A stretch of 64,000 bases of DNA from Escherichia phage vB_EcoM_JE01. Position 1 is the first letter of the stretch. The number at the start of each line of letters is the position of its first letter. A model generated the notes under the pieces. The model was not told the origin of the DNA. It worked only from the letters and a program-made list of their open reading frames with translations, and did no database searches. The translations under genes and the position numbers were made by a program. The stretch is from the sequence record PQ471460.1, one strand, 5' to 3'. Below are positions 14,331-60,428 of the stretch, piece by piece.

Positions 14331-14783
14331 ATGGCATATTCTGGAAAATGGGTTCCTAAAAATATATCAAAATATAGAGGTGACCCTAAAAAAATTACGT
14401 ATAGATCAAATTGGGAAAAATTCTTTTTTGAATGGTTAGATAAAAATCCAGAAATTATTGCATGGGGTAGTGAAACAGCAGTAATTCCTTATTTTTGTAA
14501 TGCAGAAGGGAAAAAACGTAGATACTTCATGGATATTTGGATGAAAGATTCTTCTGGACAAGAATTTTTTATTGAAATAAAGCCTAAAAAAGAAACACAA
14601 CCACCAGTTAAACCAGCACATCTAACAACTGCAGCGAAGAAAAGATTTATGAATGAAATTTATACATATTCCGTTAATACTGATAAATGGAAAGCAGCTC
14701 AAGCTTTAGCTGAAAAGCGCGGAATAAAATTTAGAATTTTAACAGAAGATGGATTACGAGCTCTTGGCTTTAAGGGGGCATAA
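14331..14783 (+). CDS. 4: head completion protein gp4
   Basis: 150 aa; [36 protein letters not shown]... matches T4 gp4. Confidence 0.9.
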
Positions 14784-15610
14784 TGGCTATTTTTCAAATA
14801 ATTAATGAAAGCACTCCCCAAGTTCCAAAGGTTAAGCAATCATTAAACGAAAAGAAATGGATTCAGATAGGTCTTGAATACATAAAGGCCAAAGCAAAAG
14901 GAATGACAGGAAAGCAATTTGCTGAAGAAAGAGGAATCAAATACTCTACGTTTACTTCGGCAATGTCAAAATATGCTTCAGGAATTAAAACGGCTGAAAA
15001 GATTCAAAAGCTTGAATCAAAACCAATGAATAAACTCAATAAGCAAGAAAGACAACTGCTTATGATAAATTCATTCAGGCAAACATTGCGTGATAAAATT
15101 CGTAATGAAGGTGCAGCAATTAATAATAAAACCAGAAAGTGGTTTGCTGAAACTATTAAGCAAGTAAAAGGACATAAAGTTGTTCGCCCGCAGCCGGGAC
15201 GAATATATGCTTTTGCTTACGATGCTAAACACAAAGAAACTCTTCCTTACTGGGATAAATTTCCTTTGATAATTTACCTCGGTTTAGGTAAACATAATTT
15301 AATGTACGGATTGAACTTGCACTATATTCCACCTAAAGCTCGTCAGCAATTTCTAGAAGAGCTTTTAAAGCAATATTCGAATACACCTACTATTACTAAT
15401 AAAACGAAATTAAAAATTGATTGGAGTCAAGTGAAAGGATTTAGGGGTGCAGATCAAATGATTAAGGCATATATACCCGGTAATATTATGGGTAGCCTTG
15501 TTGAAATCGCCCCGAAAGACTGGGCGAACGTTGTATTAATGCCACTCCAAAGCTTCTACTCCAAAGGAAAACGTTTCTCTGCAAACAAAGTTTGGAGCAA
15601 TGTACGATGA
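14783..15610 (+). CDS. 2: DNA end protector protein gp2
   Basis: 275 aa; TAATG overlap with gene 4; T4 gp2 position and size. Confidence 0.85.
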
Positions 15611-16266
15611 ATTATGAAAAAATTTATAATTCACTAATTGATAGGGCTCGCAATAGAGCCCTTACTGGATATAAAGAAAGACATCATATTATTCCGAAAT
15701 GTTTAGGCGGTAGTAATGATGCTTCTAACTTGGTTGATTTAACTCCAGAAGAGCATTATGTTGCACATCAACTATTAGTAAAAATACACCCAAATTCTTT
15801 AAAATTATCTTATGCGGCCATAAAAATGACGGTTTCAACTAAATATGTTAGGAGAAATAATAAAGTTTATGGTTGGTTAAAAAGAAAACATGCAAATAAT
15901 ATTTCAAATACACAAACTGGACGAAAATATTATAATAATGGTAAAAGATGTATAAAATTGCATGATGGAGATATAATTCCTGAGGGATTTATTTTAGGAA
16001 GAGGATGGAGTCCGACACAAGGCACAACTCATTCTAGAAAAAATGATACATTTAAAAACAAAAAGCTTCAATCTGCTTTAGCTAATAAACGGTGGGAAAA
16101 AGAAAAGAAAATAATGTTAGATAACTTTGGAGTTAGCACTATTGATGAAGCAAAGAAAATTGTTCTTGATTTTAAATCAACTTGTCATCCAAGATATTGG
16201 CGAAAGCCAACTTTAGAAAAATTTCCATTTATGACTTCTGCTCGTTTAAGAAGTCTAATAAATTAA
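15607..16266 (+). CDS. HNH homing endonuclease (Mob-like), inserted between genes 2 and 3
   Basis: ATG at 15607 in ATGA overlap with gene 2 stop (track start 15592 is TTG); motif [31 protein letters not shown]; paralog of minus-strand ORF 58328-59044. Confidence 0.8.
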
Positions 16267-16372
16267 TTCTATTATCTTCCATTCTTTTCTATTGTTTGTT
16301 CTAATTGGAATTGAATGGAAGGGACTTAGACCCATTATACCACCAACATTTATGAAGCATTATGAGGAATAT

Positions 16373-16903
16373 ATGTCGCAAGCACTACAACAAATTTTTA
16401 ACCAAGCAAATACAACTAACTTTGTAGTATCAATACCGCATAGTAATACTACATCTGCTTTTACTTTAAATGCTCAGTCAGTTCCTATTCCGGGAATTAG
16501 GATACCTGTTACTGATACCGTGACTGGGCCGTTTGGACTAGGCCGAGCACAACGTCCAGGTGTTACATTTGAGTACGACCCACTCATCGTGAGATTTATA
16601 GTTGATGAAGAGCTTAAGTCATGGATAGGAATGTATGAATGGATGCTAGGAACTAGTAACTATCTTACAGGCGAAAATACTGCCCAAAAAACAGGTCCTG
16701 AATACATTACGCTTTACATTTTAGATAATAGTAAAACTGAAATCGTGATGTCAATAAATTTTTATAAGCCTTGGGTTTCTGACCTGTCTGAAGTAGAATT
16801 TAGCTACACAGAAGATTCAGACCCAGCCTTAGTATGCACAGCAACGATTCCTTATACGTATTTTCAAGTAGAAAAAGATGGAAAAATTATAGCAGAAGTT
16901 TAA
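16373..16903 (+). CDS. 3: tail completion and sheath stabiliser gp3
   Basis: Track ORF starts at TTG 16292; ATG 16373 with GAGG SD gives 176 aa MSQALQQIFNQANTTNFVV..., T4 gp3 length. Confidence 0.85.
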   Translation: MSQALQQIFNQANTTNFVVSIPHSNTTSAFTLNAQSVPIPGIRIPVTDTVTGPFGLGRAQRPGVTFEYDPLIVRFIVDEELKSWIGMYEWMLGTSNYLTGENTAQKTGPEYITLYILDNSKTEIVMSINFYKPWVSDLSEVEFSYTEDSDPALVCTATIPYTYFQVEKDGKIIAEV

Positions 16904-55046: not shown

Positions 55047-55187
55047 ATGATATTTCTTGGATATGTGATACTTTTTCTTGCATTTTATCTATTCACCAGA
55101 GCGTGTTGGATTGGGTTCTTTAGCACTCCAGATGGATTTATTTCAATAATTTTATTTTGCATTTCAATGACGGTTCTTGATATATGA
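55047..55187 (+). CDS. small hydrophobic peptide (46 aa), hypothetical; not in ORF track
   Basis: MIFLGYVILFLAFYLFTRACWIGFFSTPDGFISIILFCISMTVLDI; ATGA overlap with gene 47 start; SD ACGGAG upstream. Confidence 0.35.
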   Translation: MIFLGYVILFLAFYLFTRACWIGFFSTPDGFISIILFCISMTVLDI

Positions 55188-56203
55188 AAATTTTAAATTT
55201 AGGTGATTGGCATTTAGGCGTTAAAGCCGATGATGAGTGGATTCAATCGATCCAGTTGGATGGAATTAAGCAGGCGATAGAATATTCTAAGAAAAACGGA
55301 ATTACTACATGGATTCAATACGGTGATATTTTTGATGTGCGAAAAGCAATCACACATAAAACTATGGAGTTCGCCCGTGAAATAGTTCAAATGCTTGATG
55401 ATGTTGGTATTACCCTACATACTGTTGTAGGAAACCATGATATGCACTTTAAAAATACTTTAACTCCAAATGCTTCTACTGAGCTTTTGGCTAAATACCC
55501 TAATGTTAAAGTATATGATAAGCCTACTACAGTAGATTTTGACGGATGTTTGATTGATTTAATTCCTTGGATGTGCGAAGAAAATACTGGTGAAATTCTT
55601 GAACACATTAAAACTTCATCTGCTTCCTTTTGTGTCGGTCACTGGGAACTGAATGGATTTTATTTTTATAAAGGAATGAAATCTCACGGTCTTGAACCTG
55701 ATTTCCTTAAGACTTATAAAGAAGTGTGGTCTGGTCACTTCCATACTATCTCTGAGGCTGCTAACGTCAGATATATTGGGACACCATGGACACTAACTGC
55801 AGGTGACGAGAATGACCCTCGTGGGTTCTGGATGTTTGATACAGAAACAGAACGAATGGAATTTATTCCAAACAACACTACCTGGCATCGTCGAATTCAA
55901 TATCCATTTAAGGGAAAAATTGACTATAAAGATTTTACAAATCTATCAGTACGTGTTATAGTAACTGAGGTAGACAAAAATCTGACGAAGTTCGAATCTG
56001 AACTAGAAAAAGTTGTGCATTCATTACGAGTTGTGTCAAAGATTGATAACTCTGTCGAGTCAGATGATAGTGAAGAAGTTGAAGTTCAATCTCTTCAGAC
56101 ATTGATGGAAGAATACATTAATGCAATTCCAGACATCACTGATTCTGACCGTGAAGCACTTATTCAATATGCAAATCAGTTATATGTAGAGGCAACACAA
56201 TGA
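55184..56203 (+). CDS. 47: recombination endonuclease subunit gp47 (Mre11-like)
   Basis: 339 aa; phosphoesterase motifs DWHLG, GDIFD, GNHD, GHWE, GHFH. Confidence 0.9.
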   Translation: MKILNLGDWHLGVKADDEWIQSIQLDGIKQAIEYSKKNGITTWIQYGDIFDVRKAITHKTMEFAREIVQMLDDVGITLHTVVGNHDMHFKNTLTPNASTELLAKYPNVKVYDKPTTVDFDGCLIDLIPWMCEENTGEILEHIKTSSASFCVGHWELNGFYFYKGMKSHGLEPDFLKTYKEVWSGHFHTISEAANVRYIGTPWTLTAGDENDPRGFWMFDTETERMEFIPNNTTWHRRIQYPFKGKIDYKDFTNLSVRVIVTEVDKNLTKFESELEKVVHSLRVVSKIDNSVESDDSEEVEVQSLQTLMEEYINAIPDITDSDREALIQYANQLYVEATQ

Positions 56204-56463: not shown

Positions 56464-56650
56464 CATTAACGATGAATTCATAGCAAATATTGATTACACT
56501 GAAGAAGATTCTAGATATGTTGGAATAATTTATATCACATCAAAAGCAGCACAAGGTGCTGTTTGCATGGCTGAATTTGATGAATACTTTTTAGATTATG
56601 ATGATATGATAGAATGGTCTAAAAGATACATTAAAAGGAATCTTTTGTGA
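56435..56650 (+). CDS. hypothetical protein (start uncertain)
   Basis: Track ORF 56387-56650 overlaps previous by 77 nt; internal ATG 56435 chosen; GTGA overlap with gene 46 start. Confidence 0.35.
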   Translation: MHTVKFSTFDINDEFIANIDYTEEDSRYVGIIYITSKAAQGAVCMAEFDEYFLDYDDMIEWSKRYIKRNLL

Positions 56651-58335
56651 AGAATTTTAAACTAAACCGAGTTAGGTATCAAAATATAATGTCAGTAGGT
56701 GGAAATCCTATTGACATTCAACTAGATAAGGTTCAAAAAACTCTTATTACTGGACGAAATGGCGGTGGTAAGTCTACTATGTTAGAAGCCATCACATTTG
56801 GGCTTTTTGGCAAGCCATTTCGTGATGTAAAGAAAGGTCAATTAATAAACAGCACAAATAAGAAAGAACTTTTAGTTGAACTGTGGATGGAATATGATGA
56901 GAAAAAGTACTATATCAAAAGAGGGCAAAAACCAAACGTTTTCGAAATCACCGTTAACGGTACACGTCTTAATGAATCTGCCAGCAGTAAAGATTTCCAA
57001 GCAGAATTTGAACAGCTTATCGGAATGTCATACGCCAGTTTCAAACAGATCGTCGTACTCGGCACGGCTGGATATACCCCTTTCATGGGCCTATCCACTC
57101 CTGCAAGAAGAAAACTCGTCGAAGACCTTCTCGAAGTAGGAACATTAGCTGAAATGGATAAGCTTAATAAAGCACTAATACGTGAATTAAATTCACAAAA
57201 CCAAGTGCTTGATGTTAAAAAAGATAGTATTATCCAACAAATTAAAATATATAATGATAACGTTGAACGCCAGAAAAAATTAACTGGTGATAACCTTACT
57301 CGTTTGCAGAATATGTATGATGATTTGGCAAAAGAAGCTAGAACGCTAAAATCGGAAATAGAAGAAGCTAATGAAAGATTAGTTAATATTGTTTTGGATG
57401 AAGACCCGACTGATGCATTTAATAAAATCGGTCAAGAAGCATTTTTAATTAAATCAAAAATTGACTCGTATAATAAAGTCATTAATATGTATCACGAAGG
57501 TGGATTATGTCCAACCTGTTTGTCACAATTAAGTTCCGGTGATAAAGTTGTTTCTAAAATTAAAGATAAAGTTTCTGAATGCACGCATTCGTTTGAACAG
57601 CTTTCAACACATCGTGATAATTTAAAAGTTCTTGTCGATGAATACCGAGATAATATTAAAACCCAACAGTCATTGGCAAATGATATTCGCAATAAAAAGC
57701 AATCTCTAATCACGACGGTAGATAAAGCTAAAAAAGTTAAAGCGGCTATAGAAAAAGCATCATCTGAGTTTATTGACCATGCTGATGAAATAGCACTGCT
57801 TCAAGAAGAACTTGATAAAATTGTTAAGACAAAAACTAATTTAGTAATGGAAAAATACCACAGAGGAATTTTGACTGACATGCTCAAAGATTCTGGTATT
57901 AAAGGTGCTATTATTAAAAAGTACATTCCATTATTTAATAAGCAGATTAACCATTATCTTAAAATAATGGAAGCGGATTATGTGTTTACATTAGATGAAG
58001 AATTTAATGAGACAATTAAATCCCGTGGTCGTGAAGATTTTAGTTATGCTTCATTTAGTCAAGGTGAAAAAGCACGAATTGATATTGCTCTTTTATTTAC
58101 TTGGCGTGATATTGCTGAAAAAGTTTCAGGTGTTAAAATAAGCTGTTTATTTCTTGATGAAGTATATGACGGTGCATTTGATGCTGAAGGTATTAAAAAT
58201 GTAGCTAAAATTTTAGATGGTTTGAAGGATACCAACTTCTTCATAATTTCGCATAAAGACCATGACCCACAAGAATATGGTCAGCATATTCAGATGGAAA
58301 AAGTTGGTAGATTTAGTTTAGCTAAGATTAGCTAG
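56647..58335 (+). CDS. 46: recombination endonuclease subunit gp46 (Rad50-like ATPase)
   Basis: 562 aa; GTG start after AAGGA SD; Walker A GRNGGGKST, zinc hook CPTC, signature SFSQGEKARID, Walker B LFLDEV. Confidence 0.9.
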   Translation: MKNFKLNRVRYQNIMSVGGNPIDIQLDKVQKTLITGRNGGGKSTMLEAITFGLFGKPFRDVKKGQLINSTNKKELLVELWMEYDEKKYYIKRGQKPNVFEITVNGTRLNESASSKDFQAEFEQLIGMSYASFKQIVVLGTAGYTPFMGLSTPARRKLVEDLLEVGTLAEMDKLNKALIRELNSQNQVLDVKKDSIIQQIKIYNDNVERQKKLTGDNLTRLQNMYDDLAKEARTLKSEIEEANERLVNIVLDEDPTDAFNKIGQEAFLIKSKIDSYNKVINMYHEGGLCPTCLSQLSSGDKVVSKIKDKVSECTHSFEQLSTHRDNLKVLVDEYRDNIKTQQSLANDIRNKKQSLITTVDKAKKVKAAIEKASSEFIDHADEIALLQEELDKIVKTKTNLVMEKYHRGILTDMLKDSGIKGAIIKKYIPLFNKQINHYLKIMEADYVFTLDEEFNETIKSRGREDFSYASFSQGEKARIDIALLFTWRDIAEKVSGVKISCLFLDEVYDGAFDAEGIKNVAKILDGLKDTNFFIISHKDHDPQEYGQHIQMEKVGRFSLAKIS

Positions 58336-59044
58336 GTTTATATTTACAGTTATCATTATGCCATCTTGATAAATTTCCGAAAGTGGTAACTTTACCACAA
58401 TGGACGCAAGTACCAGTCTTTTCAGTTTTCTTGCGTCCATTTGGATTTTTCTTGCAGAAATTTCTATGCGCTGCGATAACGCATTTCTTGCCTATCATTC
58501 CACAGAATTCGCAGGATGTTTCTTCAAGAACGATTGCTTTAAGCCCGTTTGAGATATTATTTCTGTGTTCTTTAGACATTGGTGGTCTAACTTTAGGATT
58601 AGGGTGATTTGGACAGTTATCAAAATGCCAACGATTCATATTCCCGCTTAATCCAGACTTACCGCAATGAGGACAAGTTAGTCTTGCTTTATTAGCTACT
58701 GCATCAGACATTTTCTTTCGTGTCTCCTGGGAGAATTCTTTGTTCTTTTCTATTTCCCAGAGTTTACGACGAATCCAACCGAAAGTTTTATTGTTGCGTT
58801 TAGCGTATTTCGTGGAAACTGTCATCATGTTAGCAGCATAGACTAATTTTGGTTCAGAAGGATAAATTTTTACTAAAAGTTGATGAGCTACATAGTGCTC
58901 TTCTGGCGTTAAATCTACTAAGTTTGAAGCATCATCACTACCGTTTAAACAGCGTGGTATAATGTGATGAGATTCAGTATAGCAATCAAGTTTTCGAGAT
59001 TTAGCATTAGAGATTAACTTTTCATAAATTAGTTTATAATTCAT
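58328..59044 (-). CDS. HNH homing endonuclease with three C-terminal zinc-finger repeats, antisense to flanking operon
   Basis: 238 aa; N-terminal [32 protein letters not shown] paralogous to ORF 15607-16266; C-terminal repeats CPHCGKSG...RWHFDNC, CEFCG...C, CVHCGKV...RWHNDNC. Confidence 0.8.
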   Translation of the reverse strand: MNYKLIYEKLISNAKSRKLDCYTESHHIIPRCLNGSDDASNLVDLTPEEHYVAHQLLVKIYPSEPKLVYAANMMTVSTKYAKRNNKTFGWIRRKLWEIEKNKEFSQETRKKMSDAVANKARLTCPHCGKSGLSGNMNRWHFDNCPNHPNPKVRPPMSKEHRNNISNGLKAIVLEETSCEFCGMIGKKCVIAAHRNFCKKNPNGRKKTEKTGTCVHCGKVTTFGNLSRWHNDNCKYKPS

Positions 59045-59077
59045 AACATATCCTTTTGATACAGCGAGTGATAAACA

Positions 59078-59085
59078 TATTTATA
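59078..59085 (-). promoter_or_regulatory. late promoter TATAAATA (minus strand) driving the HNH endonuclease
   Basis: Minus-strand reads CGTATAAATATG...AAGGATATGTT-ATG; TATAAATA then SD AAGGA 7 nt before start. Confidence 0.6.
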
Positions 59086-59095
59086 CGGAGGAACT

Positions 59096-59287
59096 GTGGC
59101 AGAATATTCAACTGGACAGCATCTATTAACTATTCCTGAAATAAAACGATATATTCTGAGAAATAATTTTTCTAATGAAGAGCATATAGTTACTGAATCT
59201 ATGCTTAAGAATGCATTTAAATCAGAATATACGAAAATAATGTCCAACAGAAATGAAGCTTGGACTGTTACTGATTATTATGACTAA
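59096..59287 (+). CDS. 45.2: hypothetical protein 45.2
   Basis: 63 aa; GTG start after GGAGG SD; position between 46 and rpbA. Confidence 0.6.
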   Translation: MAEYSTGQHLLTIPEIKRYILRNNFSNEEHIVTESMLKNAFKSEYTKIMSNRNEAWTVTDYYD

Positions 59288-59296
59288 AGGTGTATT

Positions 59297-59686
59297 ATGA
59301 CTAAAATTACTGTGAATTATACTGTTGATGTAAAAGATATTCAGCCAAAACACGTGCGTTCTGAATCAAATCCACAAAACCAAAATAAAATTCGTCGAGC
59401 ATGGGTTTTGTCTCTTTCTGATAACGCAATGGAAGTTATTCAGAACAAAATTAAATCTGCACCTGCTCGTCATGCGTATTATGAAGCCATCGATCGTGAA
59501 GTGAGTGATAAATGGATTGAACTGATGCGCAAACATACAGCAGAATCTCTAAATGCTGGTGCCAAATTTATTATGACTTCATGTGGTGAGCGCCTTGAAG
59601 ATGATTATTGCGGTAATGCAGATGAACGTCTAATTGTTGCTGCTCAAATTGTTGCTGAAACAATTGCTGCTGATTTTAATCGTTAA
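59297..59686 (+). CDS. rpbA: RNA polymerase binding protein RpbA
   Basis: 129 aa; position immediately upstream of gene 45 and T4 RpbA length. Confidence 0.7.
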
Positions 59687-59712
59687 TTGCTTTATTAAAT
59701 TAGTTATAAAAT
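59686..59712 (+). promoter_or_regulatory. MotA-dependent middle promoter for gene 45
   Basis: Consensus MotA box ATTGCTTTA 59686-59694, 12-nt spacer, -10 TAAAAT 59707-59712. Confidence 0.65.
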
Positions 59713-59741
59713 TAAATCTCATTTGAATTGAAGGAAATTAC

Positions 59742-60428
59742 ATGAAACTGTCTAAAGATACTACTGCTCTGCTTAAAAATTTCGCTACTATTAACTCCGG
59801 TATTATGCTTAAATCTGGTCAATTTATTATGACTCGCGCAGTTAATGGTACAACTTATGCAGAAGCAAATATTTCTGACACTATTGATTTTGATGTAGCA
59901 ATTTACGATTTGAACGGTTTTCTCGGTATTCTGTCTCTAGTTAATGATGATGCAGAAATTTCCCAGTCAGAAGATGGAAATATTAAAATTGCTGATGCTC
60001 GTTCAACAATTTTTTGGCCAGCAGCCGATCCAAGTACAGTAGTTGCTCCTAATAAACCAATTCCATTCCCGGTAGCATCTGTTGTTACTGAAATTAAAGC
60101 TGAAGACCTTCAACAGCTATTGCGTGTATCTCGCGGTCTGCAGATTGATACAATTGCTATCACAGTAAAAGAAGGTAAAATCGTAATTAACGGTTTTAAT
60201 AAAGTAGAAGATTCTGCTTTGACCCGTGTTAAATATTCTTTGACTCTTGGTGATTATGATGGTGAAAATACATTTAATTTCATTATCAATATGGCAAATA
60301 TGAAAATGCAACCAGGAAATTATAAACTTCTGCTCTGGGCAAAAGGTAAACAAGGTGCTGCTAAATTTGAAGGTGAACACGCGAATTATGTAGTAGCTCT
60401 TGAAGCTGATTCTACCCACGACTTTTAA
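59742..60428 (+). CDS. 45: DNA polymerase sliding clamp gp45
   Basis: 228 aa; MKLSKDTTALLKNFATINSGIMLKSGQFIMTRAVNGT... matches T4 gp45. Confidence 0.95.
   Translation: MKLSKDTTALLKNFATINSGIMLKSGQFIMTRAVNGTTYAEANISDTIDFDVAIYDLNGFLGILSLVNDDAEISQSEDGNIKIADARSTIFWPAADPSTVVAPNKPIPFPVASVVTEIKAEDLQQLLRVSRGLQIDTIAITVKEGKIVINGFNKVEDSALTRVKYSLTLGDYDGENTFNFIINMANMKMQPGNYKLLLWAKGKQGAAKFEGEHANYVVALEADSTHDF

Follow-up and report, generated by a model that had tools for sequence, protein, structure and literature searches.

An antisense gene between genes 46 and 45.2

The locus belongs to a T4-like phage; by "the window" we mean the whole stretch of DNA analysed, 64,000 nucleotides long. Gene 46, whose product is a Rad50/SbcC-like recombination nuclease subunit, occupies 56647-58335 of the plus strand, and gene 45.2 starts with GTG at 59096. 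Between them a minus-strand ORF (58328-59044; ATG start, 238 aa plus stop) runs opposite to both neighbours, as a preliminary description of this DNA had stated. It meets the 3′ end of gene 46 tail-to-tail, with an 8-nt overlap, and its ATG lies 51 nt from the start of gene 45.2. The features of the locus are as follows.

58117-58335, plus strand: diverged 3′ end of gene 46, about 220 bp, linked to the endonuclease gene; putative co-conversion/immunity tract
58328-59044, minus strand: predicted homing endonuclease gene, Mob / I-TevIII-type HNH (ORF, PHROG match, MobE homology)
58346-58408, minus strand: predicted zinc finger 3, CX2CX12HX3C, aa 213-233 (conserved across the whole family)
58454-58513, minus strand: predicted zinc finger 2, CX2CX11HX3C, aa 178-197, degenerate, without RWH/DNC (motif)
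58613-58675, minus strand: predicted zinc finger 1, CX2CX12HX3C, aa 124-144, CPHCGKSGLSGNMNRWHFDNC (motif, AF2 model, alignments)
58883-58975, minus strand: HNH catalytic core, aa 24-54 (E24, H26, H27, N41, H50, H54)
59051-59055, minus strand: Shine-Dalgarno sequence AAGGA, 6 nt before the endonuclease ATG
59078-59085, minus strand: TATAAATA, an exact match to the box of T4 late promoters, on the outermost edge of the insert
59086-59101, plus strand: GTG start (M-A-E...) of gene 45.2 with its replacement ribosome-binding site (T4 alignment, right-hand junction)

The ORF had also been called the sole minus-strand gene in about 45 kb, and this holds: from 14.3 to 64 kb, every other long ORF of the minus strand either overlaps plus-strand genes or resembles noise. 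In the RefSeq annotation of NC_054918.1, the closest relative among the DNA-search matches listed (98.7% identity over the 1901-nt query), the endonuclease gene alone, of all CDSs across the roughly 47 kb from gene 43 to gene 4, is on the opposite strand.

A predicted HNH endonuclease of the Mob / I-TevIII group

Judged by its sequence, the 238-aa ORF is free-standing and encodes a homing endonuclease of the T4 Mob / I-TevIII HNH group, which agrees with the initial proposal of a free-standing HNH endonuclease. The protein matches the PHROG 655 'homing endonuclease' profile (E=9e-69) and shares 43% identity with T4 MobE over its N-terminus (aa 1-115; E=2e-29); T4 mobE, mobD and RB3 mobE were all matched by tblastn. 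More than 2,000 homologues were found at E≤1e-5. The His...Asn...His residues of the beta-beta-alpha-metal motif, characteristic of HNH (His-Me finger) nucleases, are present, and E24, H26, H27, N41, H50 and H54 are invariant in the family alignment (n=45 sequences). Both catalytic and zinc-ligand residues are unchanged across orthologues down to 42% identity. A search of Pfam and NCBIfam gave no family above cut-off; the Pfam HNH match was weak (16.9 bits, below the 21.4 cut-off), as were those to the HNH segment of an IscB model (E=3.7e-5) and, once, to NUMOD3 (aa 103-115; E=0.14, 12.6 bits vs. a cut-off of 20.4). NUMOD3 repeats in many homologues sit where the subfamily of this protein has extra fingers. 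A sequence search of the PDB returned no meaningful relative (best E=0.17).

The preliminary description saw three RWH-x-DNC repeats in the C-terminal part. Three C-x2-C...H-x3-C motifs are indeed there, with X spacings of 12, 11 and 12, but 'RWHxDNC' occurs in the first and third only, the middle one reading CEFC...AAHRNFC. The idea of tandem zinc-finger modules stands, in that the motifs are of the type found in I-TevIII, whose CX2CX12-13HX3C fingers bind one zinc each and are required for DNA binding (PMC1865063). The two fingers of the I-TevIII remnant in T4 align with fingers 2 and 3 (E=1e-8), the order there being likewise 'plain' then 'RWHxDNC', and finger 1 aligns with the finger of T4 nrdB.1 and with the I-TevIII remnant. 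Across the 45-sequence alignment, the four ligands of finger 3 (C213, C216, H229, C233) never vary. An AF2 model of the protein (pLDDT 93.5) contains three beta-hairpin-plus-helix fingers, finger 1 being modeled with high confidence. The predicted topology fits the classical C2H2-type beta-beta-alpha finger, but the last ligand is Cys instead of His; in the profile collection searched, the CCHC finger scored above threshold with no model. Foldseek against the PDB gave nothing at E≤0.001, and its top matches, to CTCF and other C2H2 arrays, TRAF fingers and HNH domains, are suggestive only (E≥0.013, low TM-scores). We take the three CCHC fingers to be the predicted DNA-binding region.

An N-terminal HNH domain followed by C-terminal fingers is the architecture of I-TevIII from the phage RB3 nrdB intron. 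I-TevIII, however, is intron-encoded and has two fingers, cutting as a dimer, whereas the window gene is free-standing and encodes three. T4 MobE, at 141 aa, has no fingers at all, and the finger-bearing nrdB.1 follows it as a separate ORF.

The gene is already known, being annotated as a (putative) homing endonuclease in RB32, RB51 and RefSeq. RB32ORF054w, RB51ORF057 and YP_010070154.1 (phage G4498) are the same gene in the same place; the RB51 copy is 98.7% identical in protein and the other records 99-100%, and proteins at that level carry the label 'homing endonuclease' in RefSeq/GenBank phages. The RB51 note reads 'similar to mobB, putative site-specific intron-like DNA endonuclease', and the mob-like genes of RB32 and RB51 were counted in a 2010 review of T4 genomes (PMC2993671). 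What separates these records from the present analysis is not sequence; they give a predicted name only, without target, promoter or orientation analysis. In the searchable library, we found nothing beyond genome tables on this gene or on the 46/45.2 insertion site.

A late-promoter box conserved upstream of the gene

The TATAAATA box (minus strand, 59085-59078) ends 33 nt before the endonuclease ATG and has the form of a T4 late promoter, a box at about −10 without a −35 element. The window contains 11 copies of this sequence against 10.5 expected; with no enrichment, a single copy proves little alone. Only four are minus-strand copies, however, and apart from this one they all lie within the minus-strand late baseplate cluster. 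Conservation is more telling: each of the 11 orthologue loci checked has TATAAATA or xxTAAATA at a position 19-45 nt upstream of its ATG. The 5′ leaders of the orthologues also share conserved blocks (TATCA...GTATCAAA) and, in the Shine-Dalgarno region, a purine-rich box after ATCAAA. The late promoter and Shine-Dalgarno sequence assigned to the gene by the preliminary description are thus both present as sequences, and it is plausible that the endonuclease gene carries a late promoter of its own. A terminator scan of 57600-59800 was negative for both strands, so the putative late transcript would probably run antisense into gene 46. A MotA-like match at 58535 (TGCTTTA-13-TATTAT), a candidate plus-strand middle promoter inside the insert, was treated as chance, because about 10% would be expected by chance over the insert (a rough estimate) and the coding region around the match is not conserved in orthologues.

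Sporadic presence at a single site

Universal presence of the ORF at this site in T4-like phages, named in the preliminary description as the outcome that would speak against it, is not what the records contain. The gene is present in 59 of 660 matching phage records, and the T4 site is empty, with a 55-nt spacer between 46 and 45.2. The same 55-nt spacer occurs in five IMG/VR Tequatroviruses; altogether, empty sites were found in T4 and in 29 of 30 assessable IMG/VR loci. All 59 Tequatrovirus carriers encode a full-length protein at least 95% identical to ours. Among Slopekvirus records, 66 of 149 are occupied, and clean empty sites occur among the rest. Ten further loci (nine orthologues at 42-65% identity plus the RB51 copy at 98.7%) all have the gene between 46 and 45.2, antisense, and with a TATAAATA-like box. 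Carriers belong to Tequatrovirus, Mosigvirus, Slopekvirus and Pseudotevenvirus and, outside named genera, include Klebsiella phage Roth67, whose orthologue is split into two ORFs, and metagenome contigs. Such scattered occupancy of one site, left empty in close relatives, is the distribution of a mobile element. The 46/45.2 junction has served as a landing site more than once.

Remodeling of both flanking genes

Alignment with T4 shows that the insertion brought replacement last codons to gene 46 and a replacement start codon to 45.2. At the right-hand junction T4 reads GGAGGAAAAACATGG and the window GGAGGAACTGTGGCAG; homology to T4 picks up again at about 59102 and reaches 100% identity from 59127. 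Every empty Tequatrovirus site contains a MotA-box/−10 promoter-like sequence, which is missing after insertion; going by the consensus, we take this T4 spacer sequence to be a middle promoter. The expectation that the antisense placement leaves the host operon undisturbed is therefore not borne out, as this sequence is lost and both gene ends are rewritten.

The last part of gene 46 is also unusual. Relative to endonuclease-free Tequatroviruses, identity is 65-87% in 58117-58335; upstream of this it is mostly 92-100%, with two brief local exceptions. Exactly 59 phage records contain this tract at ≥90% identity (the next best is 81%); they match the 59 gene carriers, and the tract is in no endonuclease-free record. 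A linked, diverged gene 46 end was also seen in two other lineages (locus L020 vs. L021/L022, and L006 vs. L011), and the C-terminal gp46 residues are unlike those of endonuclease-free relatives in 11 of 11 carrier loci. The Walker B codons fall inside the tract, at about 58144-58170. The motif, L[IF]LDE[VI]FD, is canonical in all 29 endonuclease-free loci (IMG/VR plus T4) and altered in 10 of 11 carrier loci.

On this pattern, the final ~220 bp of gene 46, diverged in carriers, resemble a co-conversion/immunity tract, a variant target flanking the gene in carriers, although this is a sequence signature of homing elements and not a demonstration of homing. The value of Walker B as a clean immunity marker is weakened by the Slopekvirus PhiK2046, which has an empty site and shares the carriers' 'DEVY' variant; its gene 46 diverges from that of carriers in the last ~85 nt only. 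We rejected a cassette shared across genera, as the carriers' gene 46 tracts share only 54-72% identity with one another. Because the tracts of different carrier lineages are no more alike than in unrelated phages, and given the PhiK2046 exception, the differences could be hitch-hiking polymorphism instead of immunity. The gene 46 end is polymorphic among endonuclease-free Tequatroviruses too (80% identity between locus L010 and T4).

Comparison with known free-standing endonuclease genes

Antisense placement had been described as typical of free-standing homing endonuclease genes, which is wrong: in T4 these genes share the orientation of their neighbors with the sole exception of segD (PMC2988022). 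Although segD resembles the window gene in orientation, it encodes a GIY-YIG protein, has no recognizable promoter and is presumed to be barely expressed (PMC2988022), whereas the window gene encodes an HNH protein and is preceded by a conserved late-promoter box. Promoters of their own have been credited to seven free-standing endonuclease genes of T4, five of them middle and two late (PMC2988022).

The window gene resembles T4 MobE, between nrdA and nrdB, in being a free-standing gene between conserved genes. MobE acts on the neighboring gene of endonuclease-free phages, dragging flanking sequence along (PMC2790892), and so provides a model for the proposed targeting of the gene 46 end. In contrast to the antisense window gene with its late-promoter box, mobE has its neighbors' orientation, lacks its own promoter and is co-transcribed with nrdA (PMC2790892).

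Proposed mechanism and alternative readings

We consider it very likely that a free-standing Mob / I-TevIII HNH homing endonuclease gene was inserted antisense between genes 46 and 45.2; transcription timing, zinc binding, cleavage, target position and homing are the parts of this best explanation that we infer. Late in infection, gp55-RNA polymerase would start at the TATAAATA box and produce a short-leader mRNA. The reversed orientation would keep the gene out of early/middle read-through transcription, so that its expression would depend on its own late promoter. The protein would combine its N-terminal HNH nuclease with three beta-beta-alpha CCHC fingers for DNA binding and, in a mixed infection, would recognize a long site in gene-free phages and then nick or cut it. 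The target would most likely lie in the 3′-terminal ~80-220 bp of gene 46 or at the 46/45.2 junction. Recombinational repair would then copy the endonuclease gene, together with the adjoining variant gene 46 end, into the recipient, while two things would shield the carrier genome: the divergence at the end of its gene 46 and the presence of the insert.

There is only a slim chance that the gene is instead an intact-looking relic, no longer mobile and kept because deletion would damage the rebuilt ends of its neighbors. The insertion does supply the last gene 46 codons and, for 45.2, both the start and the ribosome-binding site, so imprecise loss would be harmful; a similar argument has been made for promoters embedded in endonuclease genes (PMC2988022). 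Defective relatives are kept in T4, namely the remnant of I-TevIII and a mobE that seems to have been separated from the ORF nrdB.1, and one orthologue is split in two. Decay, however, is hard to reconcile with the 59 of 59 full-length Tequatrovirus copies, with catalytic and zinc-ligand residues that stay invariant in distant orthologues, or with the coexistence of occupied and clean empty sites within genera, as expected of an active element.

We attach similarly little probability to a domesticated role, in which a late antisense transcript damps the 46/47 or 45.2-rpbA messages or the nuclease serves mainly to exclude competing phages. Such a role would suit the antisense orientation and late box kept across orthologues 42-65% identical from at least four named genera, the conserved leader blocks, and transcripts that, with no terminator-like site after the gene, should extend into gene 46; antisense transcripts from endonuclease-gene promoters have been raised as a possibility only (PMC2988022). 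Most relatives, T4 included, nevertheless lack the gene, which makes an essential role implausible, and marker exclusion is the homing mechanism viewed from the loser's side. That the ORF is a chance reading frame or mis-call, for which its odd orientation is the only argument, is ruled out for practical purposes by its homologues, strong family matches, conserved motifs and confident fold prediction.

Within the preferred reading of a mobile homing endonuclease gene, the main value of the analysis is the correct annotation of a selfish gene whose family is well studied and which already bears this name in RB32/RB51 and in many phages of RefSeq. Loss of a conserved middle-promoter-like sequence and two rewritten gene ends amount to a concrete remodeling of the replication operon, with local mosaicism in gene 46. 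Antisense placement and a late-promoter box are kept together across genera, an arrangement only theoretical in the T4 review (PMC2988022).

A bolder version, which we think rather unlikely, is that the gene represents a distinct, old Mob-type lineage in which antisense orientation and late promoter are selected features, maintained at one site in at least four genera. The orientation would insulate a toxic nuclease from early/middle read-through and yield a late antisense RNA over the gene 46 3′ end, and the target may be the Walker B/C-terminal coding region. That target would belong to the gene for the Rad50-like nuclease that itself processes the breaks on which homing relies. If true, this free-standing gene would be the first on record among phage homing endonuclease genes to be antisense and have a dedicated promoter, and its product would be forcing residue substitutions on an ATPase motif encoded by the host gene.

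In Klebsiella phage Matisse, an unrelated HNH gene lies at the 46/45.2 junction in sense orientation.

An antisense Mob-type endonuclease gene between genes 46 and 45.2

The genome in the window is T4-like (Tequatrovirus) and is oriented opposite to the standard T4 map. The locus is laid out as follows.

55184-56203, plus strand: gene 47
between genes 47 and 46, plus strand: two small ORFs
56647-58335, plus strand: gene 46
58328-59044, minus strand: endonuclease ORF, 238 aa, between 46 and 45.2
6 nt upstream of the endonuclease ATG, minus strand: AAGGA
59085-59078, minus strand: exact late-promoter box TATAAATA, its end 33 nt upstream of the ATG
59096-59287, plus strand: gene 45.2, GTG start
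beyond gene 45.2, plus strand: rpbA, 45, 44 and 62

The stop codons of the endonuclease ORF and gene 46 overlap (8 nt), and 51 nt separate the gene 45.2 start from the endonuclease ATG. The preliminary description had reported an antisense ORF at this junction and a lone minus-strand gene in about 45 kb, and both points were borne out: each of the remaining long minus-strand ORFs from 14.3 to 64 kb either overlaps genes on the plus strand or resembles noise, and in the RefSeq annotation of NC_054918.1 (the closest relative among the DNA-search matches listed, 98.7% identical over the query) no CDS other than the endonuclease gene lies on the opposite strand in the ~47 kb from gene 43 to gene 4. 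That such placement is ‘typical’ of free-standing homing endonucleases was not supported, because in T4 only segD, which has no recognisable promoter, departs from the orientation of its neighbours (PMC2988022).

The ORF is very likely a Mob/I-TevIII-type homing endonuclease gene. Its protein matched PHROG 655 (‘homing endonuclease’; E=9e-69) and, over aa 1-115, T4 MobE (43% identity, E=2e-29); none of the curated Pfam and NCBIfam models scored above cut-off. In a 45-sequence alignment, HNH residues E24, H26, H27, N41, H50 and H54 were invariant, as were the last-finger ligands C213, C216, H229 and C233. A confident AlphaFold2 model (pLDDT 93.5) shows a beta-beta-alpha nuclease core at the N-terminus, together with helices and three beta-hairpin-plus-helix fingers, each of which carries a C-x2-C-x11/12-H-x3-C motif.

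aa 124-144: zinc-finger motif 1, with RWHxDNC
aa 178-197: zinc-finger motif 2, without RWHxDNC
aa 213-233: zinc-finger motif 3, with RWHxDNC

Thus the three C-x2-C repeats described earlier are present, but the RWHxDNC signature ascribed to all of them is found in the first and third only. Fingers 2 and 3 align with the finger pair of the T4 I-TevIII remnant (E=1e-8), and finger 1 or finger 3 aligns with the nrdB.1 finger of T4; judged from these alignments, the fingers are the I-TevIII zinc-finger module in three copies. In RB3 I-TevIII, the ‘CX2CX12-13HX3C’ motifs bind one zinc each, and both DNA binding and cleavage depend on them (PMC1865063). More distant homologues have NUMOD3 repeats in place of fingers 1 and 2.

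In T4 (L038, NC_000866; 3717-4417), mobE (141 aa) is followed by nrdB.1 (83 aa), which holds the finger CPHCGK…RWHYDKC. Because the two jointly align with the window protein from end to end, what is annotated as T4 mobE looks to be the N-terminal portion of a full-length Mob gene that has been split. The window also encodes a second Mob-like HNH protein (219 aa, 15607-16266, plus strand), oriented like its neighbours, gene 2 (DNA end protector, 14783-15610) and gene 3 (16292-16903). It is 69% identical to the first over aa 1-94, with an unrelated C-terminal half that lacks a CCHC finger; at this site the close relative G4498 has a gap of only ~107 nt.

The endonuclease gene is a known gene of a known kind, already annotated: RefSeq names it ‘homing endonuclease’, the RB51 copy is ‘RB32ORF054w … similar to mobB, putative site-specific intron-like DNA endonuclease’, and the RB32 and RB51 mob-like genes were counted in a 2010 review (PMC2993671). 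Our literature search found no experimental study of it. What we add is modest: a linked gene 46 tract, an antisense and late-promoter arrangement that is conserved, and recognition of the site as a hotspot.

Sporadic occupancy of a recurrent insertion site

A 1.9-kb query over the locus matched 660 phage records, only 59 of which covered the ORF; a protein at least 95% identical to the window endonuclease was likewise encoded in 59 records, equal in number to the DNA-level carriers. The T4 spacer at this site is only 55 nt (L001, 4248-4302, equivalent to window about 58336-59095), and 29 of the 30 assessable IMG/VR loci, located via gene 46, lack the gene. Comparison of the junction, as the preliminary description had proposed, therefore showed the gene to be sporadic. 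An identical protein (100%) is encoded in PV654520.1 (H41; 142 kb, ‘Pseudomonas phage vB_PSGBLB0006’), an odd find in a Pseudomonas phage; it may reflect a mislabelled or chimeric record.

Nine orthologues (42-65% identity) and the RB51 copy (98.7%) all lie antisense between 45.2 and 46, most overlapping or abutting the gene 46 end. These ten loci represent Tequatrovirus (RB51), Mosigvirus, Slopekvirus, Pseudotevenvirus, Klebsiella phage Roth67 and five metagenome contigs. Presence is sporadic in Slopekvirus too (66/149 records), and in Klebsiella phage Matisse (L045, KT001918.1; 795-1277) this gap is filled by a 160-aa HNH endonuclease gene that is unrelated and lies in sense orientation. These observations make the site a hotspot, and on this comparison endonuclease genes of different families have repeatedly landed at the junction, antisense orientation being a property of the Mob-type lineage here. 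In a record related to Matisse, the gene in the gap is annotated as an AP2/ERF-domain protein. The Roth67 orthologue (L005, PQ657814.1; 1501-2235; 64.5% identical) is split into annotated ORFs of 89 and 133 aa, a copy in decay at the same position.

A predicted late promoter and altered host-gene ends

Both the minus-strand late box and the AAGGA of the preliminary description are present. TATAAATA occurs 11 times in the window against 10.5 expected, so its weight as evidence depends on where it lies and how well it is conserved: the only three other minus-strand copies all lie inside the minus-strand late baseplate cluster, and 11/11 orthologue loci keep TATAAATA (7) or a TAAATA-core variant (4) 19-45 nt 5′ of the ATG. 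The late timing predicted from the box agrees with known cases; seven T4 free-standing endonuclease genes are credited with their own promoters, five middle and two late (PMC2988022). We found no terminator-like site on either strand in 57600-59800, so a late transcript would probably run on antisense into gene 46.

I-TevI represses its own late promoter. The leader between late box and ribosome-binding site (59045-59077) contains blocks, GTTTATCA … GTATCAAA, common to the window and loci L002, L005, L006, L020, L040 and L041, although these orthologues are only 57-65% identical in protein. The blocks could be an operator, or could merely reflect constraint from the 45.2 ribosome-binding site on the opposite strand.

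Homology to T4 is lost about five codons before the gene 46 end and picks up again at codon 2 or 3 of 45.2. The insertion thus provides a new gp46 C-terminus (…GRFSLAKIS vs. …GRFTVMV in T4) and equips 45.2 with a new GTG start and ribosome-binding site. Every empty Tequatrovirus spacer has TGCTTTA-11 nt-TATAAT just 5′ of 45.2, which we take to fit the MotA-dependent middle-promoter consensus (MotA box/-10). It is missing from the window, and the insertion appears to have displaced this promoter-like sequence; gene 45 retains a similar MotA-like box at 59688. Antisense promoters and promoter displacement have been discussed as theoretical risks of insertion (PMC2988022). A MotA-box-like TGCTTTA-13 nt-TATTAT within the endonuclease gene (58535-58560, plus strand) is directed at 45.2, but is probably fortuitous, since the surrounding coding region is not conserved in orthologues and a match over the insert has a roughly estimated ~10% chance. 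Genes 46 and 45.2 overlap stop to start (ATGA/TAATG) in many other genera, where an insertion between them breaks a translational coupling.

A linked, diverged 3′ end of gene 46

Compared with endonuclease-free Tequatroviruses, gene 46 is mostly 92-100% identical up to ~58100, two short local dips excepted, falls to 65-87% over its last ~220 bp, and identity returns to mostly 90-100% from ~59127 on the 45.2 side. Searched alone, the tract matched exactly 59 records at ≥90% identity, the next best being 81%; tract and endonuclease gene are therefore strictly linked. Two further lineages repeat the pattern independently: carrier L020 vs. empty L021/L022 (mostly 95-100% upstream, 63-80% over the last ~240 bp) and carrier L006 vs. 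empty L011 (97% upstream vs. 76% at the gene 46 end). Homing by MobE and SegG co-converts flanking DNA, and the carrier allele is cleavage-resistant (PMC2790892); by analogy, the linked tract would be the signature expected of both. A single recent cassette is ruled out, as tracts of different carrier lineages are only 54-72% identical to each other.

The last gp46 residues differ from endonuclease-free relatives in 11/11 carrier loci. Walker B, L[IF]LDE[VI]FD, is canonical in all 29 empty loci and changed in 10/11 carriers, in ways that vary by lineage (F->Y; L->M with F->M; L->M alone; I->V; V->C; Fisher p ~1e-8, or ~8e-7 with lineages collapsed, phylogeny ignored). As a counter-example, PhiK2046 (Slopekvirus), with an empty site, has ‘DEVY’ as in carriers, its divergence confined to the last ~85 nt. 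The most cautious placement of the target is within the 3′-terminal ~80-220 bp of gene 46 or at the junction, with the chances for this about evenly balanced; that it is Walker B specifically is rather doubtful.

Two endonuclease-free IMG/VR Tequatrovirus loci (L010, L012) have a third version of the last ~200 bp, 80% identical to T4 after 300 nt at 99% and resembling the Mosigvirus type. Even where no endonuclease gene resides, the gene 46 end is on these alignments a hotspot of mosaicism; the third version is possibly a trace of past occupancy. In L027 (IMG/VR 2974573174, 171,911 bp), the match to gene 46 falls one base short of its length in other loci and, read in frame from the start, terminates in unrelated residues, which points to a frameshift or an error of sequencing close to the 3′ end.
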